Shown here in pieces: positions 526 through 54,256 of a stretch of 64,000 nucleotides of DNA (position 1 is the stretch's first letter; each line of letters opens with the position of its first letter). A program made the translations under genes and the position numbers. The notes beneath the pieces are model-generated. The model saw only the letters and a list, made by a program, of their open reading frames with translations, did not search any database and was not told where the DNA came from. The stretch lies in NCBI GenBank assembly GCA_030620995.1, contig JAUXIK010000007.1, positions 1,506-65,505 of the forward strand. The letters run 5' to 3'. Origin of the DNA: Candidatus Aegiribacteria sp. (lineage in GTDB: Bacteria; Fermentibacterota; Fermentibacteria; Fermentibacterales; JCC-6).

Positions 526-590
526 CTCTGAAACTCCTGTCTCTGAAGCTCGAATACTGGTACAGTATCTCACCTTCCGGAATTGGGAGT
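526..590 (+). repeat. Diverged copy of the 3' end plus downstream region of the 9296..10198 gene
   Basis: About 53/65 nt identical (hand count) to 10152..10216. Confidence 0.7.
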
Positions 591-679
591 TAAAAGAGCA
601 ATCTTTCCACTGGAATTCCTGCGGATTATCGAACAAAGACTACTTCCTTGCATAAAATACAATAATTGTAAAAAAGACC

Positions 680-708
680 TTGCAGAAAATACCGCATTGT
701 GATATTAT
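680..708 (+). promoter_or_regulatory. Sigma70-like promoter TTGCAG-17-TATTAT with TGn extension; predicts a leaderless mRNA
   Basis: -10 ends 6 nt before the ATG at 715. No SD sequence is present. The spacer end CATTGTGA is shared with the brnT promoter. Confidence 0.45.
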
Positions 709-714
709 ATCCAC

Positions 715-2046
715 ATGAAACGTACAATCATAAAAGAGTTAACGGCATGGAAAAACAGTAAGGTTCGCAAGCCATTGATACTGCGTGGTGCCCGTCAGGT
801 GGGAAAAACCTATATACTGCAGGAATTTGGCAAAACAGATTTTCCACGTTGTCATTATGTGAATTTTGAGAATGATGAACGATTGTGTGCTCTATTTGAA
901 AAAGATATCTCACCTGTCCGAATAATCAATGAGCTTCAATTCTACCTTGATACCTCTATCAATATAGTTCGTGATCTGGTTATCTTCGATGAGATCCAGT
1001 GCTGTCCCCGGGCGCTTACCTCACTCAAATACTTCCACGAAATAATGCCGGAACTGGCATTGTGCAGCGCCGGTTCCCTGCCTGGAGTCAGTCTTGCCGG
1101 AGACTCTTTTCCCGTGGGAAAAGTTACTTTTTTGGATCTATTTCCTATGAATTTCAATGAATTCCTTACGGGAATCGGAAAATTGCGTTTAGCAGAACTG
1201 TTGCAGACGCATTTTCTTCAAGAACCACTGCCACAAATAGTGCATGACCAACTATGGGATTTATGGAAATATTACCTCATTATCGGAGGTTTGCCTGAAG
1301 CGGTCAATATCTACCGCGAGCGCCTTGAAAACCCGTATGAAGCTATCCAGGCGGCTCGAAGCGTCCATCGGGATCTTGTCGATACGTACATGGCGGATAT
1401 CGCAAAACACTCCGGCAAAACAAATGCCCTGCATATAGAACGGCTCTGGCGCAATGTACCGGTTCAGCTTGCGCGTGCTCAAGACGGGGGTGCATCGAAG
1501 TTTCGTTTTAAAGATGCAGTACCTGGTTTTCGTGGTTATGAACGTCTGTCTTCTCCATTAGGCTGGTTGGAGAGTGCTCGGCTTATCCTGCGGACTTCTA
1601 TTGTGAATCGAGCTGAAACTCCGTTGGCCGGATTCACAAGAGACAACCGGTTCAAGCAATACTTTTTTGATGTGGGTCTCCTGGCTGTTATCACCAATAT
1701 TGATCCAGCTCATATTTTAAAGTACGATTACGGAAGTTACAAAGGCTATATCGCGGAAAACTATGTTGCGCAGGAACTACGCGCAGCAGGAGTTCGAAAT
1801 TTGTTTTGCTGGAAAGGACGGACATCTGAGGTGGAGTTTCTACTGGAAACTTCATCGGGCATTATTCCTTTAGAAGTCAAATCAGGGTGGGTGACCCAAT
1901 CTAAAAGTATGAATGTATTTGTGGAACGATACCAACCCCGGCAGAATATCATACTGAGCGCTAAAAATGTGAATTCATGCGGTTCACGGTTGTATGTTCC
2001 GATCTATGCCGCCGGTCGGTTGGCGAATTTGTTATTAAGTCAGTAA
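715..2046 (+). CDS. AAA+ ATPase, AAA_14 plus DUF4143 architecture
   Basis: 443-aa ORF with Walker A GARQVGKT and Walker B LVIFDEIQ. The C-terminal part is typical of DUF4143 proteins. Confidence 0.8.
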   Translation: MKRTIIKELTAWKNSKVRKPLILRGARQVGKTYILQEFGKTDFPRCHYVNFENDERLCALFEKDISPVRIINELQFYLDTSINIVRDLVIFDEIQCCPRALTSLKYFHEIMPELALCSAGSLPGVSLAGDSFPVGKVTFLDLFPMNFNEFLTGIGKLRLAELLQTHFLQEPLPQIVHDQLWDLWKYYLIIGGLPEAVNIYRERLENPYEAIQAARSVHRDLVDTYMADIAKHSGKTNALHIERLWRNVPVQLARAQDGGASKFRFKDAVPGFRGYERLSSPLGWLESARLILRTSIVNRAETPLAGFTRDNRFKQYFFDVGLLAVITNIDPAHILKYDYGSYKGYIAENYVAQELRAAGVRNLFCWKGRTSEVEFLLETSSGIIPLEVKSGWVTQSKSMNVFVERYQPRQNIILSAKNVNSCGSRLYVPIYAAGRLANLLLSQ

Positions 2047-2296
2047 CCATGATTTTCGGAAGACATTTCTGATTGAGTTATATAATAATCCGGATCTTTG
2101 CTCATTCTGTGAACAATAGAGTTCAACGAAAGTATTGGACATGCTGGAAATAACGTTTTGTAAAGATGGCTTTGGAGTGTGTGAAGTAAATATTGAGGCG
2201 TCACATGACGAACTTGAGCTGCTTGAGCAGTCCCTCTGCGCTTTGTCTGAAGGAGGTCGCGAGGAATACGTGTTTCCGGGCCGTACCGAGTTCAAT

Positions 2297-2352
2297 CCGC
2301 ACGGATAGAATCTATAACCGCTCTGACCGGGCTTTCAGAGGAATGTGGATAT
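2297..2352 (+). repeat. Diverged copy of the region just downstream of the 9296..10198 gene
   Basis: CCGCACGGATAGAATCTATAACC...GGGCTTTCAGAGGAATGTGGATAT matches 10221..10276. The core 24-mer is 21/24 identical. Confidence 0.6.
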
Positions 2353-2440
2353 TCAAATTACTTAATACACTTTTCAAAACATGAGTAATCCTTAATTCGC
2401 TGAAGGACATGTTTCCCTGCTGCAAACCACCGGTCAGGGA

Positions 2441-2529
2441 CCGCACATGATACCGAACATGATTCGTAACATGATAAAACACTGCAGGTGGCTCTGCAGG
2501 ATGCCATGGGATGGCAGGACTATCATCTA
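2441..2529 (+). pseudogene. Internally deleted mini-copy of the pRiA4b-like locus (upstream ACATGAT triplet fused to an internal gene segment)
   Basis: 2441..2479 matches 4571..4610 (about 34/39). 2483..2529 matches 4822..4868 (about 43/47). The ~211 nt carrying RBS, start and first ~58 codons are missing. Confidence 0.7.
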
Positions 2530-2577
2530 TCGCTCTTGTGTGTATTCCTATTATGAGTTATTTTCTTATTCAAGAAA

Positions 2578-3690
2578 ATGAAAGGATTTGGGAAAATGCC
2601 AACTGAAATTGAAATGATGGATCAACTGCAAAATGGTAAACTTCAGGTATCACCACTTTCTTTGCGCTTGATTCAAGATCAACCTGTTATAAATGAAACC
2701 GGGAATTTCGATGCACTAGTAGAGATATCCTGGGTGGGTAAAACAGCAAGATTCATTGTTGAACTGAAATCAATATCAACACCAAAAGTATTTCAGAACG
2801 CTATTAATTTCCTGAAATCTTCCCTGCTTCCTCAGGGCTACCTACCCTTGCTTATAGTGCCGTTTTTCAGCGAACAGCAACTGAAGGAACTGGAATGTCA
2901 GGGTATTAGCGGAATAGACCTGTGCGGGAACTGTGTATTGATCGCACCGAACAAGTTCGCAGTATTACGCAGCGGGGCAAAAAACCGTTTCCCTTCCTCG
3001 GCTTCAATTAAGAACATCTATAGAAAAAACAGTTCCATGGTTGGAAGAGTATTTCTGACCGTTTCCAGTTACAGTAGTGTTCAGGGGGTTTGCGCAGAGA
3101 TCAACCGGAGAAATATGCTTGTGAGATACGGCGTTAAGAAACCCATGAGCCTTTCAACGATTTCGAAATCATTGAAAACGCTCGAGAATGATTTGATTAT
3201 AGGGCGCAAGGGTGATATTCACTTGCTTCAAGCTGACAAACTTCTATCAAAGCTGACGGAGAATTATTTCCCTCCGGAAACCAGGACAATTATACGACTT
3301 AAAGTGCCACAGACGAGGAACACAATTATGGAGTTATTAATGAACCAATCGCAGAAGTTAGATCTTCCTGTTACAGCTACTGGGATTTCATCCACTTCTC
3401 AGTATTCAGTAATGCAGCGGGGTGATTTGCTATCTATCTACTGCACAAATGTGAGTTCTATGTTGAAAAGCATACCCGGAAACCAGACGGATCGTTTCCC
3501 GAACCTTGAACTGGTCGAAACTAAAGATGAAAGGGTATTTTTTGATACCCGTGATGATCAAGGTTTTCAATGGGCTTCGCCAATACAGGTTTACCTTGAG
3601 TTAATGGACGGAGATAAGCGAGATCAGGAAACAGCGGAACAAGTCAGATCACTCATTCTGATGAATTGTCAACAGGAGGTGCAACTATAG
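2578..3690 (+). CDS. Hypothetical protein with a PD-(D/E)xK-like N-terminal signature, a wHTH-like middle and an AbiEi-like C-terminal end (inference)
   Basis: 370-aa ORF. FDALVEISWVGKTARFIVELKS gives a D...ExK pattern. MSLSTISKSLKTLENDLIIGRKG is HTH-like. ASPIQVYLELMDGDKRDQETAEQV resembles ALPEKALLDLVYLEPEGDSEGYLEQL of the AbiEi at 13220..13855. Confidence 0.55.
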   Translation: MKGFGKMPTEIEMMDQLQNGKLQVSPLSLRLIQDQPVINETGNFDALVEISWVGKTARFIVELKSISTPKVFQNAINFLKSSLLPQGYLPLLIVPFFSEQQLKELECQGISGIDLCGNCVLIAPNKFAVLRSGAKNRFPSSASIKNIYRKNSSMVGRVFLTVSSYSSVQGVCAEINRRNMLVRYGVKKPMSLSTISKSLKTLENDLIIGRKGDIHLLQADKLLSKLTENYFPPETRTIIRLKVPQTRNTIMELLMNQSQKLDLPVTATGISSTSQYSVMQRGDLLSIYCTNVSSMLKSIPGNQTDRFPNLELVETKDERVFFDTRDDQGFQWASPIQVYLELMDGDKRDQETAEQVRSLILMNCQQEVQL

Positions 3691-4556
3691 TGTTTCAAAC
3701 CCTTAAAACAGCTTTACTCGATATACTGAACGAAGTGCAAGGCACCGATGTTAATCTCATTATTGGCGGAGGTTACGGCTTATATCTAAGAACCATGTAC
3801 AGACGTCAATCCGGCGAACGAACACTCTTTGTAGAATGGCCGGAAGCGCGATCAACTAGTGACATTGATTTGTTTCTCAGACCGGAATTGCTTATCGACT
3901 CAGACAAATTGAAACCTCTGTCAGAGGCTCTGGATAAACTGAGATATAAACCTGTTCCCGGTGCTGAGAAGTATCAGTTCAAGAAACCTGGGCCTGGAAA
4001 TTCTGATGCAGGAGAAATAAAGATTGATATCCTCACTGGCCCTGAAAGTTCTTTTGATAGTACAAGAGTCAGGACAGATGCTCGACGAGCCAGACCTAAT
4101 CCTTCTGTCGGGATTCATGCTCATCCCACTAACGAGGCCCTGACTTTAGAGGAGGGGTTATTGCCAGTGAAAATTACAGGCGAATTAAGCTCAGGTATAT
4201 CTTTGACAGCCGAAGTATACTTGCCACACCCATTTACTTTTTTGATGATGAAACTTTTCGCTTTTAGAGATAGGCACGAAGATTTGAAAAAAGAATTTGG
4301 ACGTTATCATGCTCTGGACATGTACAGCATCCTTGCGACAATAACCGAAAAAGAGTGGGCCCTGGGCATCATATTTCGAGACAAGTACTTGACTTCTCCT
4401 TCTATGAACGAAGCGTGTCATCTTGTCTCAAACTACTTTTCCACATCTGAAAGCTTGGGCATACTCCGTTTAAAGGAAAGCGAATATTACCGATCTGATT
4501 TTGAACTTGATAAATTCATATCAGCTCTGAATGAACTCTTCCCTCGTGGGGAATAA
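3690..4556 (+). CDS. Nucleotidyltransferase-fold protein, distant AbiEii/AbiGii-like
   Basis: GTG at 3690 overlaps the upstream TAG by 1 nt, and AGGAGG lies 9 nt upstream. Motifs are IIGGGYGLYL (G-rich NTase loop), SDIDLFL (DxD) and GRYHALDMYSIL (compare GRDYYDLMWY in the canonical AbiEii at 12399..13223). Confidence 0.55.
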   Translation: MFQTLKTALLDILNEVQGTDVNLIIGGGYGLYLRTMYRRQSGERTLFVEWPEARSTSDIDLFLRPELLIDSDKLKPLSEALDKLRYKPVPGAEKYQFKKPGPGNSDAGEIKIDILTGPESSFDSTRVRTDARRARPNPSVGIHAHPTNEALTLEEGLLPVKITGELSSGISLTAEVYLPHPFTFLMMKLFAFRDRHEDLKKEFGRYHALDMYSILATITEKEWALGIIFRDKYLTSPSMNEACHLVSNYFSTSESLGILRLKESEYYRSDFELDKFISALNELFPRGE

Positions 4557-4575
4557 TGATTTGTTCAAATACCGT

Positions 4576-4606
4576 GCATGACACCGTACATGATTCGTCA
4601 CATGAT
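4576..4606 (+). promoter_or_regulatory. Three ACATGAT-type direct repeats with 12-nt period (putative operator/iteron)
   Basis: GCATGAC at 4576, ACATGAT at 4588 and ACATGAT at 4600, 42 nt upstream of the ATG at 4648. The same triplet occurs at 2445/2457/2469. Confidence 0.4.
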
Positions 4607-4647
4607 AAAAGTTACTGGCTGTATATCGAATCAGGAAGGAAGCATCC

Positions 4648-5319
4648 ATGAGCAGGTTTGACAGGAATTATACAGAAGAAGGCTATCTCATGAATTATGA
4701 GACACCAAAACTCAGCGCTTCCTTTAAAAGGCAGGTGCTGCAGTTCAGAATTGAGCTGGAAGATATTGAACCCGCGATATGGCGGAGAATACAGGTGCCA
4801 TCTGACTGCAATTTCTGGGGCCTGCATGTGGCTCTGCAGGATGCCATGGGGTGGCTGGACTATCACCTGCATCGTTTTGAGATAAAGGGGAAGCATAAAA
4901 GGAATGAAGTTCACATCGGCATTCCTGACTTTGACAGATTTGGCGGTATTCAGGAGGTGTTCCCGGGCTGGGAGATCCCAGTGATAGACTACTTCAACGA
5001 TCTGGGAGTAACCGCCAGATATCACTATGACTACGGAGACGACTGGTTTCATGCAGTGAAGCTTGAGGGTTACATCTTCAGGGAAAAAGAGCAGGAGTAC
5101 CCCTGCTGCGTCGGAGGCGCCAGGGCCTGCCCCCACGAAGACTGCGGAGGTCCTCCGGGATATGTGAACATGATAGAAATTCTCTCAGACCCGGAGAACG
5201 AGGAATATGAAGAAATGCGCTCATGGGCGGAGGACTGGCACCAGGAGCGCTTTGAAAGAGAGAATATCAAGTTCGATAACCCGTATGGAAGATGGGTGTA
5301 CGCTTTCCTGAGGAGATAA
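4648..5319 (+). CDS. pRiA4b ORF-3 family (MM3350-like) protein
   Basis: LQFRIELEDIEPAIWRRIQVP, YHYDYGDDWFHAVKLEG and CPHEDCGGPPGY are hallmark motifs of this family. Confidence 0.8.
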   Translation: MSRFDRNYTEEGYLMNYETPKLSASFKRQVLQFRIELEDIEPAIWRRIQVPSDCNFWGLHVALQDAMGWLDYHLHRFEIKGKHKRNEVHIGIPDFDRFGGIQEVFPGWEIPVIDYFNDLGVTARYHYDYGDDWFHAVKLEGYIFREKEQEYPCCVGGARACPHEDCGGPPGYVNMIEILSDPENEEYEEMRSWAEDWHQERFERENIKFDNPYGRWVYAFLRR

Positions 5320-5387
5320 GAACTCTTCGGATAAGAAGATGAAGGAGTTGAGAACAATTTCATTTGCACAAGATCTGCGTACTTTCG

Positions 5388-6941
5388 TCAGTTTCTCGTT
5401 TCGAAGCAGCTTTTATAAAGGCTTTCTATCTCTTCGGTCTCTTCTTCGGTAAGCGCGGCGAACTCCCCTGATTTTGCCCTTTTCGATAGTCTGCCTCCGT
5501 TCTGCTGCAGGAATCTATGGAGTAGATCGATCTTGCTGGAGGGCATTTCCACTATCTCGCTCATACCTTTCTGGAACCTGTCGTAGTGTTGAAGAAAAGC
5601 CACTTCACGAGGCAAAATGGTTTCTATGGTTTGCTCTACGCACCTGTAGATGAACTCTGTCTGCTTTGTGGCATCGAAATAGCGGTAGAAGTCAGCTGTA
5701 TCATTAAGAACCTTTACGTTGCCTTTTGTCGTGGACTCCCAGTCTATCATCGGAAGCAGACGGGTTGAGTAGCTCTCGAGTGTTGATCGGTACTCCTGAA
5801 TCCGCTCAAGGATAGCCACGGACACCGGGAAGGGCAGCCCGGGAGGATTGAACCCCCTGCGGGTGAGTTCATGATGCATCAGAAGCCTGTGGATCCGGCC
5901 GTTTCCATCCTCGAACGGGTGGATATACACGAACCCGAAGGACAGTACAGATGCGGCCACAACAGGATCCAGCTCCGGAGCATAGTCCAGATCGAATATT
6001 ATCATCCCGTTCATAAGGGAATCAAGGTCCTCAGGCCGGGCGCTGATGTGAACCGGCAGAGGATTTCCAGAACGACGATCATGCTGTCCTATAAAACCTC
6101 CTTCTTCTCTGAGCCCTTTTCGTACGAATCGGAAATCACTTATTACTATCTGCTGCAACCGAAGAAGCTCTTCCAGACTCAGGGACATTCTTCCGGACTC
6201 GCCGATGGCATGGCCCCACCGCTGGATACGGCTCTGCGGCGCCTGCTCCCCCTCTATCGCGAAACTGGCTCTGGAATCATCCACAAGCAGGAACGCAGCT
6301 GCTCTGGTCAGAATATCCTCGGGGACATCTCCTATTACCCCCCTGGCTCTGGCGGGGAGATCGGCTCTGTGATAACTCTCCAGCAATTCCGTCCGGAAAA
6401 CAAGGGGACAGAACTCACGTGTTCCAGGCAGGTTGTTCCGTACGCGGTGTCTGGTAGAGGTCTTTCCGGGAACACAATACTGTAAATCCGGGTCAATCAC
6501 AGGAATGTAAGCTCCTCCCTTCGATCGGGAATCGGGCAGATCAAGCTGCTCTCCCAAAAGCCATTCGTACAGGAACCAGAGTCGTCTGGCATAGCTGCCT
6601 GCAGGGGTTTCCCGGACCATCTGCAGGAGGGGTGCGGGACCGGTCTCCAGGAAAAGCCTTTTCAGTAAAGCAAGATCAAGACCCTCATACTTGAGAGCGA
6701 AAGTCAATTGTCCTCTGAGTGTGGGCTCAGGCATATGGCGGGGAGTGAGGATTTGCCAGCAGTCACGCACATACTTCCTGTGTCTGGCGCTGATCGCACT
6801 GAGCATCCGTGGAACGGGTACCCTGAGATCAAAGGCTTGAATAAGAGCTGCATAACCCACCGGAGCAGCCTTCTCGGGAAGCCGTCTGTTCATGAAAGTT
6901 CTAACAGGTCCAGGAGAACTTACCTTGAAAGTGGTCTTCAT
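5388..6941 (-). CDS. Fic/DOC family protein
   Basis: 517-aa ORF with the Fic motif HPFEDGNGRIHR. Confidence 0.8.
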   Translation of the reverse strand: MKTTFKVSSPGPVRTFMNRRLPEKAAPVGYAALIQAFDLRVPVPRMLSAISARHRKYVRDCWQILTPRHMPEPTLRGQLTFALKYEGLDLALLKRLFLETGPAPLLQMVRETPAGSYARRLWFLYEWLLGEQLDLPDSRSKGGAYIPVIDPDLQYCVPGKTSTRHRVRNNLPGTREFCPLVFRTELLESYHRADLPARARGVIGDVPEDILTRAAAFLLVDDSRASFAIEGEQAPQSRIQRWGHAIGESGRMSLSLEELLRLQQIVISDFRFVRKGLREEGGFIGQHDRRSGNPLPVHISARPEDLDSLMNGMIIFDLDYAPELDPVVAASVLSFGFVYIHPFEDGNGRIHRLLMHHELTRRGFNPPGLPFPVSVAILERIQEYRSTLESYSTRLLPMIDWESTTKGNVKVLNDTADFYRYFDATKQTEFIYRCVEQTIETILPREVAFLQHYDRFQKGMSEIVEMPSSKIDLLHRFLQQNGGRLSKRAKSGEFAALTEEETEEIESLYKSCFETRN

Positions 6942-7100
6942 GAATATTTATCACCTTTCATGAATTATAGTCACTATTCGCGTCATTCCTGATAAACAAG
7001 TATAACTTATGATTGCAATGTACACAAGATCCATAATCATGAAAAACTATAACTACATGTGATACCTGTGAATCATATCATCTGACCGTCTAGTCCTTTG

Positions 7101-7143
7101 TCGACATAGATGAGAGTGATGTCTAGACATATCTCGACATAGA
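7101..7143. promoter_or_regulatory. Operator-like cluster: TCGACATAGA direct repeat flanking the perfect palindrome ATGTCTAGACAT
   Basis: TCGACATAGA at 7101 and 7134. The 12-bp palindrome is at 7119..7130. A TA-rich stretch follows, upstream of the HTH gene at 7222. Confidence 0.4.
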
Positions 7144-7221
7144 GGTCAATAGCGTATATATATATGTAGACATTGATGGATCTTTGTGACATTATTAGTA
7201 AACCGTTTCAGGAGAAGGAAT

Positions 7222-7683
7222 ATGAAAAGGAAAGCAAAGCTCATTCGGGAGCAACTGGAGAAAACTCTGCGGAAATTCGAACCCCTGAGGGATTCACCTC
7301 CTCCTGTCAAAGGGTGGATCCGTGCCATTAGAGATGCCCTGGGTATGAACGGAAGGCAGCTCGCTGACCGGCTCGGAGAACACCGATCCCGCACAAAGCA
7401 GATTGAGCAGCAGGAGATGACAGGATCGCTCACCCTCAAAACCATTCGAAGAATTGCCGAAGCGCTGGACTGTGTTTTCGTTTACGGCCTTGTTCCCCGA
7501 ACAAGTCTTGAAGAAACTGTTCGTGATCAAGCGAAGAAAATTGCACTCAAACGTCTTACTCTAGCCTCTCATACAATGAAGCTTGAGAATCAGGCACTAG
7601 GTACAAAGGAAAGCAAGGAAATCCTGTCCGGTATGATCGAAGAAATCATGGATGAACTTCCATCATATCTATGGGATGAATGA
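7222..7683 (+). CDS. Mobile mystery protein A (XRE-type HTH)
   Basis: AGGAGAAGG lies before the ATG at 7222. An HTH segment is present (GMNGRQLADRLG). It overlaps the downstream Fic partner, as expected for the TIGR02612/TIGR02613 pair. Confidence 0.7.
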   Translation: MKRKAKLIREQLEKTLRKFEPLRDSPPPVKGWIRAIRDALGMNGRQLADRLGEHRSRTKQIEQQEMTGSLTLKTIRRIAEALDCVFVYGLVPRTSLEETVRDQAKKIALKRLTLASHTMKLENQALGTKESKEILSGMIEEIMDELPSYLWDE

Positions 7684-8270
7684 TGCATGGTTTCGATTAT
7701 CCGGATGGTGCCACTCCCATTGATCCAGACGAAGCAGAAGACCTGCTTCTCACACATATAACCACACGTGGTGAATTAGATCGCTGGGAAGAGGAGAATA
7801 TTATTGAGGCGATGGACTGGCTTGACAGAACAAAGCCGACAGATATTCTGAATGAACTATTCGTCAGGGAACTTCACCGGCGCATGTTTGCCAATGTCTG
7901 GAAATGGGCAGGACATTTTAGGCACAGCGACAAGAATATCGGCGGACCGTGGTATCAGATTTCTGCGAACCTGAAAGACCTTTGCGATGACGTGCGCTTA
8001 TGGATAGAACTGCAGGAGTATCCACCCGATGAAGTGGCTATCCGTTTTCACCACCGGCTGGTGTTGATTCATCCATTTCCCAACGGCAACGGCCGCCATG
8101 CCCGGCTGATGACCGATCTTCTTCTTGAAAACATCCTCAATTACCCAAGGTTTACATGGGGAATCGAGGATCTGTCAAGAACCGGTAATGCCAGACAAAG
8201 ATACATCGCAACTCTTCACGCAGCAGATAAATACAACTATGAACCCTTGCGGAAGTTTGTTAGAACATAG
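7680..8270 (+). CDS. Mobile mystery protein B (Fic domain)
   Basis: HPFPNGNGRHARL Fic motif. The N-terminus GATPIDPDEAEDLLLTHITTRGELDRWEEENI is typical of this family. The ATG overlaps the upstream stop. Confidence 0.8.
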   Translation: MMHGFDYPDGATPIDPDEAEDLLLTHITTRGELDRWEEENIIEAMDWLDRTKPTDILNELFVRELHRRMFANVWKWAGHFRHSDKNIGGPWYQISANLKDLCDDVRLWIELQEYPPDEVAIRFHHRLVLIHPFPNGNGRHARLMTDLLLENILNYPRFTWGIEDLSRTGNARQRYIATLHAADKYNYEPLRKFVRT

Positions 8271-8371
8271 GACAGCATAAGCGAAGGAGGATAGGAAAGA
8301 CCGGGGATTAATAGAATCCGTTATTTTGAAATGAGTCATCTTGATCCAAGTATTTTAGAGGAAGGATTCAA

Positions 8372-9211
8372 ATGTTCAGAATATTCGCTGGAGTTGTTTC
8401 GCTGAGCCTTATGCTCGTGACTGGATGCGGCGGTGGTGACCAGCCGCAGACGGACGATACGGCAGGTGATGCCATCTCAGAAGAAGTCGCTGATGAGGTT
8501 ATTGAAGAGGTTGTTGAGGAAGCGGTTCTTTATCCCGAGGGGAAACTGGATCCTTCAGCAGTAACTCCGGATGTCGCTGTTGATGCATGGGCACTGAATG
8601 AAGCCTACTTCGCATGGATGGGGAAGGAAGTCACGCTTGTTGCATATCCCTATATCTGGTACGGTGATGATACTGTAGTAGAGGATGAGCTTCGACTTGT
8701 TGCCGATCCTGAATCTACAGATGAGCTTGCTACAGCCTGTTTCGATGAGCTCCAGAACCGGACGCTCATGCGGGGGGAGATCATATCCGTGCGGGGAATA
8801 GTGGAGGAGGGCTGGAGCGGTCCTGAACTTACAGGCGCTATCTTCATAGATCCACCCGAAAGTTTTGAAAGGGTCGAAACCAGTCCCTGGGTATATGACG
8901 TTGAACCCATTCCTGTTGATCAGTTCAGTGAGATGTTCAATGTCTGGATGGGAAAGGAAGTAACCGTGGAGAGTTACTACCACTCCACAACAACTTCCAC
9001 TACAGATTACGGCACTACCATCAGAATAGACCTTGCGGATCCTCAGGACACCTACACGAAGTACGCAGCATGCGAGATGCTGGAACCTCTTTCCGCTGTT
9101 TCCGAGTCACTTATCGTGGCTGATCGCGTCGGCGTTCAGATCAGAGGAACCATCGCAGATCCGTTCTTCGACAAGGTAAGGCTGGAAGGCTGTGTTCTGG
9201 TTAACAGGTAA
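8372..9211 (+). CDS. Lipoprotein, unknown function, internally duplicated
   Basis: Lipobox LVTGC and an acidic linker. The repeat is FAWMGKEVTLVAYPY / NVWMGKEVTVESYYH. Confidence 0.6.
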   Translation: MFRIFAGVVSLSLMLVTGCGGGDQPQTDDTAGDAISEEVADEVIEEVVEEAVLYPEGKLDPSAVTPDVAVDAWALNEAYFAWMGKEVTLVAYPYIWYGDDTVVEDELRLVADPESTDELATACFDELQNRTLMRGEIISVRGIVEEGWSGPELTGAIFIDPPESFERVETSPWVYDVEPIPVDQFSEMFNVWMGKEVTVESYYHSTTTSTTDYGTTIRIDLADPQDTYTKYAACEMLEPLSAVSESLIVADRVGVQIRGTIADPFFDKVRLEGCVLVNR

Positions 9212-9232
9212 AGATTATTTGAGCTTTTGTTT

Positions 9233-9293
9233 GGGGGGACACGCACCAGAGGCAAGGTTAACCGGGGACACGCACCAGAGCGTGCATGTCCCC
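9233..9293. repeat. REP/BIME-like element: one left-arm unit plus one complete GGGGACACGCA...TGCATGTCCCC hairpin
   Basis: Units start at 9235 and 9264 (29-nt period). The hairpin at 9264..9293 has 12-nt arms with one C.A mismatch. Confidence 0.75.
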
Positions 9294-9295
9294 AG

Positions 9296-10198
9296 ATGGA
9301 GAATGCTATGCAGTCAGAGAATAAGAAACTTTCTGTCTTCAAGAGGGTGGGCGGGTTCCTGCTCATCATTGTTGTGCTTCTTGGCTTTTTCTTTCTGGGA
9401 GGGAAACTGACCGGCCTGTTCTCTTCTCATATGCGCGTTCAAGATTTCTCTCGCACCACAGGATCCTTTGCCAATGTTGCGCTCACTGCTGCGTTTTGTA
9501 CTCTTTTCGCAGCTGTGGTTGTGTATGTCGTGGTTTTTCTCACCAATTGTTTTACGTTTAATTTTAGCAGACCCTTCTTCGCGGGGTTTAAAAAGAAGCT
9601 CTATTTCATCCATATCATCGTTGGTCTGGGCTTATCACTGGCGGCCGGTTTTTCCGTTTCTGTTCCCGTTACACCGATCCTGGTGCGCCTTGGCCTGCCG
9701 GAGCCATTACCGTTCATCGCTCCTATACTGATCTCGTTGATCTGCGTTCAGCTCATTCTGGTATGGGTTAATATCTGGACACCGCTGAACAGAACAATCG
9801 TCAGAAAAAGGGCAGCTGCGCTTGGAATCGATCCCATCAATCTTGAGAAGGGAATTATTGTTGGAGTATCGGATCCTGAGAGAAGCAGCTTCAAAAAGCT
9901 GACTCTGGTAGAAGATGATGTTGGCGTGCTCTGGATAGAGTCAGCACAGCTTGTGTACAAAGGGGATACATCAAACTTCGAGCTGAAACGTGATAATGTG
10001 ATTTCCGTTGAATGCAAGGCAGATTCTGGAAGCATGGCATCATACGCGGGTGCGGTATATCCCATATTGCGATATCGAAACCCAGACGGAAGTGAGCGCA
10101 GCATACGTTTTCATGCCTGGGGCAATTGGACTCTGGGCGGTATGTCGAAATCCCTGAAACTTCTGTCCCTGAAGCTCGAATCCTGGTACAAAACCTAA
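9296..10198 (+). CDS. Multi-pass membrane protein with a soluble C-terminal domain, unknown function
   Basis: The tracked ORF starts at 9227, inside the REP element, so I prefer the ATG at 9296 (MENAMQSENKK). About four hydrophobic segments are followed by a ~120-aa soluble tail. Confidence 0.55.
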   Translation: MENAMQSENKKLSVFKRVGGFLLIIVVLLGFFFLGGKLTGLFSSHMRVQDFSRTTGSFANVALTAAFCTLFAAVVVYVVVFLTNCFTFNFSRPFFAGFKKKLYFIHIIVGLGLSLAAGFSVSVPVTPILVRLGLPEPLPFIAPILISLICVQLILVWVNIWTPLNRTIVRKRAAALGIDPINLEKGIIVGVSDPERSSFKKLTLVEDDVGVLWIESAQLVYKGDTSNFELKRDNVISVECKADSGSMASYAGAVYPILRYRNPDGSERSIRFHAWGNWTLGGMSKSLKLLSLKLESWYKT

Positions 10199-10276
10199 TC
10201 TTCCGGAACCGGGAGCTAGCCCGCATAGATAGAGTCTAAAACCTTATTGTATGGGCTTTCAGAGTAATGCGGAAAT
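10152..10276 (+). repeat. Intact-locus counterpart of repeats 526..590 and 2297..2352
   Basis: The two blocks (10152..10216 and 10221..10276) are only 4 nt apart here. Confidence 0.65.
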
Positions 10277-10627
10277 ATTAATACTGAATGTGCTCTTGCT
10301 AGCAGGTTGAAACTACTAACAAATGTGTTAGTAACATTATGGTTAGTAATTATGTGAAATCCTTCTTCATCCACTGGTTCAAAACCTCAGGGCTGGTCTG
10401 ACTTAGATCTGCGGATTAACTGCATGAATAATGAAAAGGTGGATATTACATTGTAGACAGCATGGAAGCGCAACGGGGTTATTTCTGATGATTCCTTCAC
10501 GAAATTCAGTAACGAAACACAGCAAACGGTACTGGAGTTTAACAAACCATTAAGCTAATTGTCAATATAACTTTCAGTTCACACGAATGTGAAGATCTAT
10601 AACACTTTTTACTAATACTACGTTCTA

Positions 10628-10656
10628 TTGACACTATAGTCTTATAACACTATAGT
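10628..10656 (+). promoter_or_regulatory. Sigma70-like promoter TTGACA-17-TATAGT embedded in a 16-nt-period direct repeat ACACTATAGTCTTA x2
   Basis: -35 at 10628..10633 and -10 at 10651..10656. The repeat copies are at 10631..10644 and 10647..10660. Confidence 0.5.
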
Positions 10657-10683
10657 CTTAATACAATGGAGGTCGAGTTGAAT

Positions 10684-17853: not shown

Positions 17854-17947
17854 TTCTGCCTGCATATTTATACTGGTAGCTACTGTAACGACACATACAA
17901 TATCTGTATACATCGAGGTGAGGTTTATTGAGTTGGAGGAATCGAAA

Positions 17948-18955: not shown

Positions 18956-18957
18956 GT

Positions 18958-20112: not shown

Positions 20113-20182
20113 CCCTCAATTACTCCAGCGGCTGCATCCGGTCATCAATTCCCCCTGCGATGGAACAGGACTGCTGATGCCT
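20113..20182 (-). pseudogene. Mini-copy of the 3' end of the M16 peptidase gene with an in-frame internal deletion
   Basis: 20113..20164 is 49/52 identical to 20831..20882. 20158..20182 matches 21057..21081. The minus strand reads ..QQSCSIAGGIDDRMQPLE*, versus ..QQSRSIG[59 aa]AGGIDDRMQPLE* in the intact gene. Confidence 0.7.
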
Positions 20183-20210
20183 GTCGCTGCAAATCGGAAA
20201 ACAGACAAAT

Positions 20211-20239
20211 TTGACAATATGCACACATTGTGATACAAT
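20211..20239 (+). promoter_or_regulatory. Sigma70-like promoter TTGACA-17-TACAAT with TGn extension; predicts a leaderless brnT mRNA
   Basis: Consensus -35, 17-nt spacer, and a -10 ending 6 nt before the ATG at 20246. No SD sequence. Confidence 0.55.
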
Positions 20240-20245
20240 TGGAAC

Positions 20246-20527
20246 ATGAAGCTTTTTGACTGGAATGATGAAAAGAACGAATTGTTAAAGAAAGAACGAG
20301 GTGTATCGTTCGAGGAGATCGTATATCATATTACTCATGGCGGACTCCTTAATACAATTGAGCACCCGAACCAGAAGAAATATTCCGGACAACGGATATT
20401 CATTGTGAATGTTGAGGGATACGCATGTATTGTTCCTTTTGTCGAGACAGAAACCCGAATATTTTTGAAGACTATCATTCCCAGCAGAAAGATGACGGGA
20501 CTGTATCTGAGAGGTGATTCTGAATGA
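20246..20527 (+). CDS. brnT: BrnT-family (DUF497) ribonuclease toxin
   Basis: The N-terminus FDWNDEKNELLKKERGVSFEEIV is typical of BrnT/DUF497. Confidence 0.8.
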   Translation: MKLFDWNDEKNELLKKERGVSFEEIVYHITHGGLLNTIEHPNQKKYSGQRIFIVNVEGYACIVPFVETETRIFLKTIIPSRKMTGLYLRGDSE

Positions 20528-20799
20528 AACTCACAAAGTACGAGAAAGATATAAAGGAATCTGTAGAGCGCGGTGAATGGGAACAGATTCCAAATTTCAA
20601 GGAGGAAGCAAAGCGCTATCAGGAAGTTGCCAGATCTACGCTTCGGAAAGACAGGCGCGTTAATATCAGAATGACAGAGAGAGACTTCATTCATATTCAG
20701 AAAAAGGCAATGGATGAAGGCCTTCCTTATCAGACGTATATCTCAAGTATTCTGCACAAGTTTATTAATGACCGGTTTGTTGAGAAAACAACACAGTAA
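20524..20799 (+). CDS. brnA: BrnA-type antitoxin (RHH/CopG-like)
   Basis: ATGA overlap with brnT. RVNIRMTERDFIHIQKKAMDEGLPYQTYISSILHKF matches the BrnA C-terminal pattern. Confidence 0.75.
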   Translation: MKLTKYEKDIKESVERGEWEQIPNFKEEAKRYQEVARSTLRKDRRVNIRMTERDFIHIQKKAMDEGLPYQTYISSILHKFINDRFVEKTTQ

Positions 20800-20837
20800 G
20801 CTTCCCCGGAAAATTCATTAATCCAACTGCCCCTCAA

Positions 20838-23516
20838 TTACTCCAGGGGCTGCATCCGGTCATCAATTCCCCCCGCGACGGAGATAAACCATTTTCCCGT
20901 GAAATACTTTTCCGCCACTTCTCTTATTACATCAGGGGTGAGAGCCAGAATCGCTTCCAGATTCATTATGTCCTGGTCGAGCGGCATGCCCAGTGTTTCC
21001 TGGGTGACAAGGAATCTCGCGACTGAATCGTAATCATCGAACGCAAGAGAGTTTCGCCCGATGGAACGGGACTGCTGCAGCAGGAGTTCCGATTCCTCAA
21101 CACCACCTTCGGCAATCCTGTCGCACTCGTACATGGCGGCTTCAAGCGCCCTTTCCACCAGAGGCGCTCCTGTCGAGAAATAGGTCTGGAATCTTGTTCC
21201 TGTGGGTGTTCCGGATGCCGAGCCGTCAACCCAGCAGCCTACAGAGTAGGCGAGCCCCTGGGTCTCGCGGATATTCCGCCCCATCCGGGAACTGATTCCA
21301 CTGCCCAGAATCTGGCACATTGCGCTGAATGGAATGTAGTCGGGTGACAGCACTTCCGGGGCCGGGCAGGCAATCACTGCCGCTGCCTGTACCCTTCCTT
21401 CGATTGTCTCAATGATGGTATCACCGGGGCATGAACTGAAGATGAAGTCCTCTGCGGCAGGCAATTCCGATGATGGGTTTTCCCAGTCTCCGAAATACAG
21501 TTCCGCCAGTTCAAGCGCCCTCCCGGACGAGATGTCTCCCACTACAGCCAGCACAGTGCCGTCGGGTCTGACGCAGGTTTCCAGCCAGGATTCCACATCT
21601 TCAAAATCGATATTCTCGAGAGTAGTGCTGTCCGCTCTGCGGCTTCCCCCTTCTTCAAGGAGAATACTGTCGATGTTATTGAATGCCCTGGTAGAGGGTC
21701 TATCGTTCCACATCGCATTCATCGCGATCGTTCGATCCTTTACCTTCAGGAAATCTTCGGTGCGCATGGCGGGACGGATGAGCAGATCGGACAGCGATGT
21801 GAAGTAGAGATCGGCGTAATCACTGTGTCCGTAGACATTCCCCAGTGTGAAGGAGTTGAAGGACATGAGCCAGGTCGTGCTTCCCTTTTCAGCAAGCCTG
21901 GCATGAAATGCCGTCTGATCGAGTTCTTCGGTTCCATGCAACATTACTTCCGCGGTAAGTGAACTTATTCCGGAAAGATCCTGCTCCGCTCTTCTGTCTC
22001 CCATCGGGACTGTTATCATCATCTCTATGATGGGAAAGCTGTGATCTTCCTTCACCAGAAGTATGAACCCGTTGTCCAGCTCGAATCGCCGCATTCCGTG
22101 GGAGATAGAATATTCGGGAACGTTCAGCGCTTCATAGTTGAGGTTCAATCCCTCCCAGTCGGTTATTTCGGGTACTTCGATATCGGAGATGCCTTCGGTG
22201 GAGGCATGCCTTGCGGCGGCGGCTGCTCCTTCCTGAGCGTTCAGAACCGCTGTCAGCATTCTGTCGGGAGTGAAGTATTTCGCGGCAACCGCTCTGACCT
22301 CCTCCGGTGTCAGAACCATAACCTCTTCTATCAGTTTCTGATGCGCCAGAGGGTCTCCATGCGTTGACTGGCTGAAGGTCACAGCAAGCGCCCTTTCAAG
22401 CGGGGTGATTTCATTCATCACTTCCCGACCCTGAATATAATTTCTGATTGTATCGAATTCGGCTGAATCGATAGCTGTTTCAGCGAGGTGGTACATTTCA
22501 GCCTCTATAACAGCGATCAGGCTGTCGGGCGAGACACCTTCCGCGGGAACTGCCGAGATTGAGAATGGAGAGGTATCCACTCCGTACGGGGTTGAAGCCC
22601 ATGCCGTCGTTGCGATGCCCGGTGTCACCAGGTTTCTTTCAAACCAGGAAATCCTGCCCCGGCCAAGGTAGTACGCAAGCAGAGTAAGCGCGGGAAGATC
22701 CGGATCATCTACTCTGCATCCGTCGAAGCAGAGCAGCACTCTGTCGGATTCAGCGGGGAAATCCATTTCCATACGGAAAGGGCCGTCAAACGTTTCTCTT
22801 TCATCCAGAGAGAGAACCGGGATATCACAGAAAGGGATTCCTCCGAAGTATTGTTCCACAAGAGCCATTACATCGTCCGGGTTGAAATCTCCTACTATTG
22901 TCAATATCGCGTTTGAGGGCTGATACCAGGTGTTGTAGTAATCGGTAACTATCTCCCTGTCATAGGCAGCTATGGCTTCACTCGTTCCCAGAACGGTTCG
23001 GCTGTATGGATGTTCACCATAGAAGACGGAACTGGCCTCGAAATAAAGAACTCTGTCAGGAGAGTCCTGGGAAAGACGCCATTCATCCATCACCACACCT
23101 ATCTCCTGCGCGATTCCCGCTGAATCCATAAGGCAGTTCCGCATCCTGTCGCTTTCTACCAGCAGAGCCTCCTCGAGAGCAGTGGCGGGAAAATAGTGGT
23201 AGTATGTCGTGAAATCATAACTTGTGAAGCCGTTCGACTGTCCGCCGTTTTTCTTTGTTATCTGCCAGAACCTGAGCCCGGATATATCCGGGGTACCGTT
23301 GAACAGCATGTGCTCAACGAAATGACTGATTCCCGTTATCTCATCCGTTTCGTACCGGGCGCCGACATTGTACCTTGTTACTACCGCCACTGTCGGTGAG
23401 TAATGCATCTCCTCGAGTACTACGGTCAGGCCGTTATCAAGCATGTAGACAACCGGGTCGGCGTGAAGAACCTGTATCGAACAGACCAGCAGAAGCAAAC
23501 AGAAAAACTTTTTCAT
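20838..23516 (-). CDS. M16 (pitrilysin/insulinase) family zinc peptidase, double-length, secreted
   Basis: Signal peptide and the inverted zinc motif HFVEH. The 892 aa correspond to two M16 halves. Confidence 0.8.
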   Translation of the reverse strand: MKKFFCLLLLVCSIQVLHADPVVYMLDNGLTVVLEEMHYSPTVAVVTRYNVGARYETDEITGISHFVEHMLFNGTPDISGLRFWQITKKNGGQSNGFTSYDFTTYYHYFPATALEEALLVESDRMRNCLMDSAGIAQEIGVVMDEWRLSQDSPDRVLYFEASSVFYGEHPYSRTVLGTSEAIAAYDREIVTDYYNTWYQPSNAILTIVGDFNPDDVMALVEQYFGGIPFCDIPVLSLDERETFDGPFRMEMDFPAESDRVLLCFDGCRVDDPDLPALTLLAYYLGRGRISWFERNLVTPGIATTAWASTPYGVDTSPFSISAVPAEGVSPDSLIAVIEAEMYHLAETAIDSAEFDTIRNYIQGREVMNEITPLERALAVTFSQSTHGDPLAHQKLIEEVMVLTPEEVRAVAAKYFTPDRMLTAVLNAQEGAAAAARHASTEGISDIEVPEITDWEGLNLNYEALNVPEYSISHGMRRFELDNGFILLVKEDHSFPIIEMMITVPMGDRRAEQDLSGISSLTAEVMLHGTEELDQTAFHARLAEKGSTTWLMSFNSFTLGNVYGHSDYADLYFTSLSDLLIRPAMRTEDFLKVKDRTIAMNAMWNDRPSTRAFNNIDSILLEEGGSRRADSTTLENIDFEDVESWLETCVRPDGTVLAVVGDISSGRALELAELYFGDWENPSSELPAAEDFIFSSCPGDTIIETIEGRVQAAAVIACPAPEVLSPDYIPFSAMCQILGSGISSRMGRNIRETQGLAYSVGCWVDGSASGTPTGTRFQTYFSTGAPLVERALEAAMYECDRIAEGGVEESELLLQQSRSIGRNSLAFDDYDSVARFLVTQETLGMPLDQDIMNLEAILALTPDVIREVAEKYFTGKWFISVAGGIDDRMQPLE

Positions 23517-52266: not shown

Positions 52267-52297
52267 TTTATAGAATAGTGTGATTCAACAGCTTTCA

Positions 52298-52327
52298 GGG
52301 GACACGCGGCAGATCCTGCATGTCCCC
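52298..52327. repeat. REP-like hairpin GGGGACACGCGGCAGATCCTGCATGTCCCC
   Basis: Same family as 9264 and 29070. Confidence 0.75.
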
Positions 52328-52390
52328 TGATTTTGTATATGGTATAGAGCCGATGGAAATTGGTTTTGAAAAGTACTTGTATGATTATGC

Positions 52391-52418
52391 AAGTGCCGCA
52401 AGTGGCGTCCGACCCCAT
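52391..52418 (+). repeat. 28-nt element AAGTGCCGCAAGTGGCGTCCGACCCCAT, left copy
   Basis: Identical 28/28 to 53346..53373. Confidence 0.85.
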
Positions 52419-52419
52419 A

Positions 52420-52530
52420 CGCTCAGATATCGCTTACGGTGAGGACTCCGACATGTTCTTCGATTTAATCGGAGAACCTATGAGTGCTCTTGAATCCGAA
52501 ACCTGGGGCAGCATCAAAACCCTCTTCTGA
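52420..52530 (+). pseudogene. 3' fragment (36 codons) of a paralog of the 53437..54114 gene
   Basis: It reads RSDIAYGEDSDMFFDLIGEPMSALESETWGSIKTLF*, versus RSDVAFDEDSDMFFDFYGESTSALESETWGSIKTLF* (about 88/111 nt). No start codon or signal peptide. Confidence 0.8.
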
Positions 52531-52646
52531 AGACTCGAACTGCGCACGAACATATCACATAAAGAAATAGCCCCCTGGTCGGGGGCTTTGTCCTCTGTGG
52601 CGAGCCACAGTAGACAATATTCGAACTATTCTGCTGTTTGGTGAAT

Positions 52647-53030
52647 TTACTTATCAGTCAATACAAGTTCCAGGGAAGCCTTCATTAATTCAAAGTGCTG
52701 GTCGAGGGTGTAGATTTCACAGTGATTCTGAAGTGCATTCTGTGCGATGATTAAGTCGGGTATACCAATACCGTTTATCCCTTGTTTCAAGCATTTGTGT
52801 TGAAATTCGATGATCTCTTTCCAATCAATATTCAAACTCAGCCGTTCGACGAAGTTCAACAGATCAATCAGTTTGTGTTGATTCTTAATTTTCAGGAATG
52901 GAATCAGTTCAGCAAGGATAAGGTCATTAATGACTAAAATGTTTTCATCAATCAAAAAATCCAGCTTGCCCGAGTTACTTCCGCCCCTGAAATAATCAAC
53001 CCAGACTGAAGAATCAACTAAAACCTGCAT
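52647..53030 (-). CDS. vapC: PIN-domain toxin VapC
   Basis: The N-terminus VLVDSSVWVDYFRG and conserved acidic positions are typical of the PIN domain. Confidence 0.8.
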   Translation of the reverse strand: MQVLVDSSVWVDYFRGGSNSGKLDFLIDENILVINDLILAELIPFLKIKNQHKLIDLLNFVERLSLNIDWKEIIEFQHKCLKQGINGIGIPDLIIAQNALQNHCEIYTLDQHFELMKASLELVLTDK

Positions 53031-53221
53031 TCACGACTCCGGACGCTGTCCATATCAATATCCAGATCGATTTTACCTTTGAATTCCTTCAGGCCAGAGA
53101 TAGTATATTTACGAATTAGTTCCTCCAAGGCTGTGATGATAACTTTGGTCTTCGTCTCGATATGGGTTGTTCGCATTGCTTCGATCATTAACTCTTCAGG
53201 TAAATTTAGAGTTGTTCTCAT
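53018..53221 (-). CDS. vapB: VapB-family antitoxin (DUF2191-like)
   Basis: MRTTLNLPEELMIEAMRTT is typical. It overlaps vapC. Confidence 0.75.
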   Translation of the reverse strand: MRTTLNLPEELMIEAMRTTHIETKTKVIITALEELIRKYTISGLKEFKGKIDLDIDMDSVRSRECRF

Positions 53222-53235
53222 TTTGACACCTCCAT

Positions 53236-53271
53236 ATGCATAATTTTACATTTTTATGCATACGCTGTCAA
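53236..53271 (-). promoter_or_regulatory. vapBC promoter TTGACA-17-TAAAAT with an inverted repeat ATGCATA/TATGCAT bracketing the -10
   Basis: On the minus strand, -35 is at 53271..53266 and -10 at 53248..53243. GGAGG lies 7 nt before the ATG. The inverted repeats are at 53236..53242 and 53255..53261. Confidence 0.6.
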
Positions 53272-53345
53272 GCGTTGATTCCCTTTTCAACACTACAACA
53301 TAGTGTTGACAGTAATGTATTGTTAATCAGATGAATACTCTTCGT

Positions 53346-53373
53346 AAGTGCCGCAAGTGGCGTCCGACCCCAT
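53346..53373 (+). repeat. 28-nt element AAGTGCCGCAAGTGGCGTCCGACCCCAT, right copy
   Basis: Identical to 52391..52418, and 63 nt upstream of the ATG at 53437. Confidence 0.85.
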
Positions 53374-53436
53374 CATTGACATAACGTAAGCATCAGGATA
53401 CATTTTAGTTGTGTTTATCTTCATAAAAGGACGTGA

Positions 53437-54114
53437 ATGATGAGACAAATCCTATCCGCTATTCTGATCTTAGCTCTGTCTTCCGCACTGGCCGATCAAC
53501 CTGCTCAGCTGGGTTCCCGCCACATTCCAAGATCAGGTCCTATTGAGATTGATGGGTTGGTTTATTAGCAGCCTTACCATTATTCGCTTATTCTGAACGG
53601 TTATAGTAACTATGGTGCAGGCGATCGCTGGGTCTGCGATGATTTCACTCTTGAAGACGACTGTGATATCCGAGAGATCTACGTCTGGATGCAATATACC
53701 GGCGGGATACCCACATATATGAATCTCATCATCTCCGAAGATGATACCGGTGATTCAGACCCCAACACCAGCAGCCATATATGGAGCGAATCCATACCCT
53801 GTACTCATATTATTGTGGAGATGTACCCCTTCTATGTCTGGGAGACTCACTGCACGATTCCTCTGGACTATCCTGAGCTTGAAGCGGGTGTCCATTACTA
53901 CTTCGAGACACAGGCCGATATTTGCGATAACTGCTTTTTTTTTGTACGTCATAATTACGTTGGTGACTACTGCTGGTACGATGACGGGTCAGGTGTGTAT
54001 GTAAGATCCGATGTTGCTTTCGATGAGGATTCCGACATGTTCTTCGATTTCTACGGTGAGTCAACAAGTGCTCTTGAATCAGAGACCTGGGGCAGTATCA
54101 AGACCCTCTTCTAG
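53437..54114 (+). pseudogene. Secreted tag-family protein gene interrupted by an in-frame TAG at 53566..53568
   Basis: The ATG at 53437 encodes a signal peptide (MMRQILSAILILALSSALA). The same frame continues through the TAG into tracked ORF 53689..54114, ending SALESETWGSIKTLF. Confidence 0.6.
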
Positions 54115-54133
54115 AAATTTCCTAATAAAGAAA

Positions 54134-54164
54134 GCCACCCATGTCGTTTTTAACGGTGGGTGGC
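54134..54164 (-). terminator. Hairpin terminator shared by tRNA-Asp (minus) and the plus-strand gene
   Basis: GCCACCC...GGGTGGC stem. On the minus strand it is followed by TTTCTTTATT. Confidence 0.5.
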
Positions 54165-54179
54165 ACTCATTCATCTCTG

Positions 54180-54256
54180 TGGCGGTCCGGACGAGACTCG
54201 AACTCGCAACTTCCGGCGTGACAGGCCGGTGCTCTAGCCGATTGAACTACCGGACC
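54180..54256 (-). tRNA. tRNA-Asp: tRNA-Asp, anticodon GUC, CCA encoded
   Basis: Manual cloverleaf: acceptor GGTCCGG/CCGGACC, D stem GTTC/GAGC, anticodon stem CCGGC/GCCGG with loop CTGTCAC, T arm GCGAG-TTCGAGT-CTCGT, discriminator G, 77 nt. Confidence 0.9.

Follow-up and report, generated by a model that had tools for sequence, protein, structure and literature searches.

Small cassettes of toxin-antitoxin, defence-type and other accessory genes in Candidatus Aegiribacteria sp. were probably acquired independently of one another, each as a unit running from promoter to stop codon, and entered by insertion with long target duplication. The starting point was a window of 64,000 nucleotides (GCA_030620995.1, contig JAUXIK010000007.1, positions 1,506 to 65,505 of the forward strand, i.e. 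C47:1506-65505; GC content 48%) in an assembly of 2.97 Mb in 192 contigs. G000 denotes this source genome, C numbers without a G prefix are its contigs, and all other G numbers refer to sister or related genomes. The original prediction, made from the window, had described four cassettes that each lie between an intact locus and an internally deleted mini-copy of the same locus: a DUF4143 ATPase cassette (case 1), a two-gene cassette beside a pRiA4b-domain gene (case 2), a BrnTA unit beside an M16 peptidase gene (case 3) and a VapBC unit near a tRNA-Asp gene (case 4). This description is for the most part correct. Cases 2 and 3 share one pattern, which recurs at dozens of further sites in the genome; cases 1 and 4 are relics at hot spots.

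Insertion beside the M16 peptidase gene

Similarity blocks in the window were tested by a repeat search together with low-stringency self-BLAST. All seven blocks behind the four cases were recovered at their coordinates, the internal deletions proposed for the mini-copies (about 211, 177 and 630 nt) were of the correct size, and no inverted terminal repeats were detected at the cassette ends. Similarity of the mini-copies to the intact loci was significant throughout, with the exception of the second M16 block, which is marginal: it extends over only 17/18 nt (GATGGAACAGGACTGCTG, matching 21057-21076), and about 3% of shuffles score equally. The composite structure of the mini-copies was likewise confirmed, yet it is better read as the product of later deletions in an orphan copy than as a composite patch.

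In case 3 the insertion is clean and its target is duplicated. The BrnT/BrnA-like toxin-antitoxin unit (20211..20799, forward strand, from its own -35 box TTGACA at 20211 through the brnA stop; weak Pfam match below the gathering score for the gene pair at 20246-20799) is enclosed by two copies of the 3′ end of an M16 peptidase gene (20838-23516, reverse strand, assigned by Pfam). One copy (20831..20882, reverse strand, located by self-BLAST) is attached to the intact gene, and the other (20113..20176, reverse strand) is an orphan of 52 nt followed by about 12 nt that match 21065-21076; the segments 20113-20164 and 20831-20882 are 94% identical (E 1e-11). The 52-nt repeat covers the final 14 codons of the M16 gene, its stop codon and 7 nt beyond. 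Its copies are 718 nt apart from start to start, and the 666 nt between them hold BrnTA. On G024:C41 the site is empty: the sequence runs uninterrupted from the S41 peptidase gene through the intergenic region to the M16 3′ end, and the 52-nt segment is present once. The orphan has its junction after the 52 nt at the microhomology GCGAYGGA/CCGATGGA, beyond which 177 nt are missing in frame; this fits a later in-frame deletion of 177 nt in the orphan. An extension of the duplication into the intergenic region and the end of brnA was also considered and was rejected (p about 0.14).

The origin of the repeats was assessed from occurrences of the same cassettes at other loci. The BrnTA unit (20211 to 20792) has a homolog of 88% identity on G019:C9 and homologs of 66% identity in G012 and G007; neither the M16 patch nor flanking repeats were found at the homologs in G019, G012 and G007. 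The VapBC unit of case 4 also occurs, with 84-86% identity, at different loci of G012, G004 and G013. No flanking repeats were found around it in G012 and G004, and in G013 it is placed between its own 63-nt direct repeat (95% identical), which is a different local sequence. Because both units occur elsewhere without these repeats or with a different local one, the duplicated DNA stems from the target and was not brought along by the cassette. The same observations make it very unlikely that circular cassettes carrying a (composite) patch of target homology were integrated by a Campbell-type single crossover, which was one of two explanations offered originally. Direct repeats of 50-270 nt can indeed excise a one-repeat circle able to re-enter an empty site, and at C81 and C66 the same insertion with the same repeat is present in several species. 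Apart from the absent or different patches of BrnTA and VapBC, the composite mini-copies are accounted for by later deletion, and a Campbell-type crossover leaves the origin of the first copy of each patch unexplained.

The surroundings of the M16 gene vary as well. The block 20112-23644 is absent from G019 and G007, where the region upstream of S41 joins window position 23645 directly, so that M16 too counts as accessory, forming a unit whose ends are reproducible (20833/20838 to 23643). Different DNA follows downstream of M16 in G014, G018 and G011.

Genome-wide excess of direct repeats

The whole assembly was searched for further pairs of this kind by self-BLAST, retaining pairs of 35-450 nt that were at least 80% identical, 300-8000 nt apart and present in at most 2 genome copies. 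The filter left 49 direct versus 4 inverted unique local repeat pairs. The footprint of entry without a recombinase, which had been called consistent on the basis of four cassettes, is thus consistent on the scale of the genome and reaches beyond these cases. The direct repeats are 41-267 nt long and 80-100% identical, with 98-99% in young pairs, and outside the window their ends are razor-sharp. They enclose cassettes of 1-3 genes (inserts of 0.35-8 kb), about half of which carry toxin-antitoxin or defence genes.

Cargo was identified by Pfam scans of about 50 cassette proteins. Toxin-antitoxin and defence types comprised MNT/HepT, ParE/Phd, AbiEii/AbiEi (AbiEii with a DUF6088 partner), two DUF6036 nucleotidyltransferase (NTase) modules, MarR-NTase/HEPN, three DUF4143 ATPases, one ATPase_2, two Fic proteins, one NYN protein and one STAND-like cyclase-AAA-TPR protein. 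Among the remaining accessory cargo were a sulfatase, a DEAD helicase, an MBOAT pair and secreted proteins ending in a type IX secretion system (T9SS) tail. No restriction enzyme, integrase or transposase was found among these proteins. Tyrosine recombinases (PF00589) gave no hit on contig C47 and about 9-10 hits elsewhere in the genome.

In 16/49 pairs, one repeat copy spans the 3′ terminus of a gene coding for 120 aa or more, and for 11 of those 16 the cassette starts between -28 and +16 nt from the stop codon. Transposon-like or attC-like ends were rejected, as k-mers were compared among the ends of 34 cassettes and none was common to them. Copy-and-paste within the genome was rejected too: within a family, cassettes from different loci are only 22-41% identical at the protein level, which points to separate acquisitions.

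Two loci found in this search are described for themselves. Region C9:17935-22880 contains dense nested direct repeats (61-113 nt, 84-97% identical) together with a fragment of a tyrosine recombinase (20786-20914), and may have arisen by amplification or by repeated hits on one site. At C41:8155-10045 (L042), direct repeats of 221 nt, which start within the final 6 nt of a tRNA-Met gene (C41:8084-8160), flank a MarR-NTase/HEPN cassette.

Empty, occupied and eroded alleles in sister species

For eight further sites, a query composed of the left flank, one repeat copy and the right flank was searched in sister species. It aligned contiguously for C66 (G013, 92%; G007, 89%), C81 (G019, 90%; also G005), C48 (G019, 88%; also G013 and G007) and C58 (G019, 86%; also G013 and G007), and approximately for C99 (G019 and G024), i.e. 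for 5/8 sites. The repeats at C66, C81, C48 and C58 measure 109, 53, 64 and 60 nt, respectively, and are single in the relatives with the empty site; the polarity is that of insertion. At C81, G007 and G024 carry the insertion with unchanged spacing. The comparison with sister genomes that had been suggested for the four cases therefore yielded empty sites for case 3 and for the further sites, none for case 2, and other content at the position of case 4. Since the same duplications are present in independent assemblies of other species, an assembly artefact was rejected.

The second original explanation, repeated duplication, insertion and deletion at hot spots, has to be judged against these alleles. 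On this view the mini-copies are what is left of tandem paralogs or of earlier occupants, and the arrival of the present cassette played no part in them. Cases 1 and 4 fit it: the secreted 'tag' protein family next to the VapBC unit occurs in tandem arrays (C120, C83, C88) and the 28-mer shared by the two sides of case 4 is a promoter motif of this family, and around cases 1 and 2 the order of island units varies in G011, G012, G013 and G018, with internally deleted pRiA4b and ATPase copies there too. As an account of the whole footprint it is highly improbable, because single-copy empty sites exist for case 3 and at least five other sites, and because directional insertion is indicated by the surplus of direct over inverted pairs (49:4) and by their sharp ends.

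Three alleles of the C66 site document what happens after insertion. On G019:C165 (L047), an orphan of 106 nt is followed by a lipoprotein gene, an NTase toxin-antitoxin pair and the gene-attached copy. In G000 (C66:6118-7156, L034) the lipoprotein gene was kept, and the toxin-antitoxin pair is gone except for the first 20 antitoxin codons. On G024:C53 (L048) the toxin-antitoxin pair was kept, the lipoprotein gene and the distal orphan were lost, and the orphan measures 42 nt, compared with 106-109 nt in G019 and G000. Orphans and cassettes shrink by deletions after insertion, as is directly visible at C66, and this is the simplest reading of the spliced mini-copies.

Cases 1 and 2 in a shuffled defence island

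Case 2 is arranged like case 3, except that a 5′ end and not a 3′ end is duplicated. The intact pRiA4b ORF3-like unit (4558..5333, forward strand; gene 4648-5319, Pfam pRiA4b ORF3) follows a two-gene cassette (2578..4556, forward strand) that encodes proteins of 370 aa and 296 aa; the pair was earlier labelled as NTases and gave no Pfam hit. On the other side lies the orphan copy (2427..2528, forward strand), made up of the upstream ACATGAT-repeat region and codons about 59-74, i.e. the 5′ end of the unit (about 4558-4868) is duplicated around the cassette and the orphan has since been shortened by about 211 nt. The two parts of the orphan were recovered as 2440-2479 against 4571-4610 (88%, E 9e-5) and 2482-2528 against 4822-4868 (91%, E 1e-8). 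The two-gene cassette was not found in any relative searched.

In case 1, the DUF4143/AAA_14 ATPase cassette (593..2296, forward strand; gene 715-2046, Pfam) sits inside a second copy of a 135-nt segment, whose source is the intact tail of a membrane-protein gene (9227-10198) together with the DNA downstream of it (10154..10289, forward strand). The left half of the relic (528..592) is 83% identical to 10154-10218 (E 2e-10), and the right half (2297..2366) is 73-75% identical to 10221-10289, just downstream of the tail (E 9e-5). The assertion that the cassette splits a copy of this tail was correct insofar as both relic halves are real. It needs qualifying on two points: positions 593-635, earlier counted as cassette, directly follow the orthologous tail in G013, and the junctions carry no duplication. 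Two more relics adjoin, namely the 3′ remnant of a pRiA4b-domain gene (337..636, reverse strand; open reading frame of 99 aa with a GDEWW motif), which is intact with 510 aa at the matching place on G012:C21, and a 33-nt fragment beyond those first listed (2385..2417), 88% identical to the 3′ end of an ATPase_2/DUF234 gene at 12070-12102. We read 337-2528 as a heap of relics left by earlier occupants.

The units of window positions 1-12200 occur in other orders and combinations on G011:C142, G011:C402, G011:C334, G013:C22, G013:C88, G012:C21 and G018:C91. Their ends are reproducible for the DUF4143 ATPase, pRiA4b (4557/4562-5320/5333), Fic (5385-7078) and ATPase_2/DUF234 (10610-12114/12121) units. 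The internally deleted pRiA4b copies in these relatives lack 4666-4929 (G011:C142) and 4701-4990 (G012:C21), and an ATPase with three internal deletions is present on G011:C402.

Case 4 on the 3′ side of tRNA-Asp

Case 4 reads as a hot spot on the 3′ side of tRNA-Asp and as a relic of turnover, not as a clean event. The tRNA-Asp gene (54180..54256, reverse strand) faces with its 3′ end a variable segment (52343-54139); between window positions 52342 and 54138, G013 contains almost nothing and G007 other genes. In the window the segment is occupied by the VapBC unit (52638..53280, reverse strand), which consists of vapC (52647-53030), vapB (53027-53221), its own promoter and about 10 nt more, with VapC-PIN and VapB assigned by Pfam. 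To its right follow a 28-mer, a promoter and the tag-protein gene (53346..54114, forward strand; gene 53437-54114). This locus had been taken as intact; it has an in-frame TAG at 53566-53568 (codon 44), and judged by its reading frame the gene may be either a pseudogene or one that starts further downstream.

To the left of VapBC, the mini-copy begins with a copy of the 28-mer AAGTGCCGCAAGTGGCGTCCGACCCCAT (52391..52418, forward strand) that is identical to 53346-53373 (28/28). This sequence has 23 copies in the genome without conserved flanks, several of them directly upstream of a TTGACA box, including that of the tag-protein gene. As the 28-mer is dispersed and linked to promoters, its perfect identity is no evidence that the locus was copied. 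The second block (52418-52528 against 54002-54112; 81%, E 1e-21) belongs to the orphan 3′ tail (52419..52530, forward strand; 36 codons and stop) of a gene of a secreted-protein family that ends in ...ETWGSIKTLF. The 111-nt tail encodes RSDIAYGEDSDMFFDLIGEPMSALESETWGSIKTLF*, the end of this multicopy family. Its longest match is the adjacent gene (106 nt, 82%), and paralogs on C120, C83 and C79 are 85-88% identical over 73-81 nt.

Two sequence elements near this cassette deserve mention of their own. The 26-28-nt motif AAGTGCCGCAAGTGGCGTCCGACCCC has 23 copies, 21 of which are located on other contigs, and is 90-100% conserved in sister species; several copies lie upstream of the TTGACA box of secreted 'tag' protein genes, and some form inverted pairs. 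On this basis the motif may be a candidate regulator-binding site. A role of the 28-mer as recombination site was rejected in view of its unconserved flanks, the lack of dif-like symmetry by eye and its position just upstream of the TTGACA boxes of several genes. Downstream of vapC, at 52533-52628, a 96-nt element with two terminator-like hairpins was found, which is dispersed in relatives (several copies in G003, others in G014 and G007).

Mode of insertion

During insertion, 40-270 nt of the target would be copied. One target copy would stay with the neighbouring gene, which thereby remains whole, and the other would become an orphan across the cassette, with no cassette-encoded recombinase involved. 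Candidate routes are a staggered break whose ends are filled in, or a switch of template with re-entry into the chromosome behind the breakpoint, and the incoming cassette might be DNA taken up from outside. The orphans would then decay by microhomology-mediated internal deletions to give the spliced mini-copies seen in cases 2 and 3; cases 1 and 4 would be relics of the same turnover at two hot spots, the shuffled defence island and the 3′ side of tRNA-Asp. As to the enzymology, we infer a route through host replication or repair as the favoured one.

The main rival is one-sided homologous recombination, i.e. homology-facilitated illegitimate recombination as known from naturally transformable bacteria (process summarised in PMC3240628). 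A donor that has the cassette beside the same gene would pair there, the far end would be joined illegitimately, and the tail of the recipient gene would be left as the orphan. The likeness lies in the capture of foreign DNA without a recombinase and in a single homologous anchor near the gene. It is also in line with this process that the cassette-proximal end of the repeat is the point where homology to other genomes stops (4557-4562, where homology of the pRiA4b unit to relatives with other neighbours begins; 20833-20838, where that of M16 ends), and that occupied sites are shared patchily, e.g. C81 in G000, G007 and G024 but not in G019 and G005. Homology-facilitated illegitimate recombination usually deletes recipient DNA and does not duplicate it. 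Donors already having the cassette beside the same gene would be required for dozens of genes, and the 98-99% identity within young pairs speaks against it as well. It further predicts donor ancestry of the gene-attached copy, for which the comparison of copies was mixed: at C58 the gene-attached copy is ortholog-like and all 5 changes unique against the empty-site ortholog are in the orphan, which fits duplication in situ, versus gene-attached copies with unique changes at C48 and C66. Overall, one-sided recombination is considered unlikely.

Several results weigh against insertion with long target duplication as the common explanation. Unique changes are distributed over 3 gene-attached and 5 orphan positions at C48 and over 7 and 5 at C66, so that the gene-attached copy is a possible donor allele in both. 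Clear empty sites were obtained at only 5/8 additional sites. For case 2, no empty site was found in the relatives, as G018:C91 and G013:C22 have other DNA upstream of pRiA4b; the junctions of the ATPase cassette of case 1 are without duplication; and case 4 can also be read as a decayed tandem paralog. In addition, no Ku homolog was found in the genome, which makes classical end joining unlikely.

Distinctly unlikely, in our estimate, is a dedicated machinery, either acting in trans (host, phage or plasmid) or linked to uptake, that places addiction and defence modules at gene ends while copying 40-270 nt of the target. It is suggested by the unit ends of BrnTA, VapBC, Fic, DUF234 and pRiA4b, which are reproducible to within about 20 nt between different loci of four species, and by the clustering of junctions at stop codons. 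If true, the toxin-antitoxin genes of bacteria and archaea would have a general route of mobility that needs no transposase.

Comparison with known systems

Insertion with long target duplication was reportedly first described by Nobusato et al. in 2000 (Gene 259:99), a paper cited in a toxin-antitoxin review (PMC2654758). Furuta, Abe and Kobayashi (2010, NAR, PMC2853133) described it for restriction-modification units with 46-423 bp repeats; most of the species were naturally competent, and the mechanism was not established. The present cassettes share with these units (PMC2853133) the small size of below 20 kb without mobility genes, an empty site in a related genome, direct repeats of more than 30 bp (46-423 bp there, 41-267 nt here) that are unique in the genome and single at this empty site, and the frequent overlap of the repeat with a gene 3′ end. 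The 28-mer of case 4 is not unique. They differ in their cargo, which is of toxin-antitoxin, defence or accessory type with no restriction enzyme, in the very high density for one genome of 3 Mb, and in orphans at several stages of deletional decay. The footprint is a known but obscure insertion mode, here with cargo other than restriction-modification genes and at unusual density.

Integron cassettes and att-flanked elements, including integrase-less remnants similar to cis-mobilizable elements (CIME-like), are comparable in being small, often of toxin-antitoxin type, located at hot spots or beside tRNA genes and flanked by direct repeats. Unlike in these systems, the repeats here are local sequences that differ from site to site, the cassettes carry promoters of their own, and no integrase is encoded in cis or elsewhere on contig C47; the ends of the 34 cassettes share no k-mer, a comparison made without an attC-specific model. 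DNA transposons and miniature inverted-repeat transposable elements (MITEs) are not matched either, as inverted repeats are lacking at the cassette ends and the duplications of 41-267 nt have no fixed length.

Significance

How toxin-antitoxin and small defence modules spread without transposase or integrase is an old open question. The genome offers about fifty scars of one insertion mode, with repeat identities from 80% to 100% as ages, and matching empty, occupied and eroded alleles are available in sister species. Breaks made by restriction enzymes are the only published mechanistic idea; as the scanned cassette proteins include no such enzyme, this idea cannot be general, and the process must then belong to replication, repair or DNA uptake in the host. 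Many small pseudogene tails and orphan open reading frames that confuse annotation are likewise explained by the scars, whose repeats allow precise loss or amplification of cassettes.

Further repeats in the window

A hairpin repeat similar to repetitive extragenic palindromic (REP) elements, GGGGACACGCA...TGCATGTCCCC, is located at window positions 9220-9293, 29065-29099, 29798-29843, 36642-36742 and 52293-52327; it was also found on dozens of contigs and in all close relatives. At 16850-18962, downstream of a gene for a protein of 892 aa (14162-16840), a segment of about 1 kb is duplicated in tandem (82% identical) and codes for two paralogous lipoproteins.

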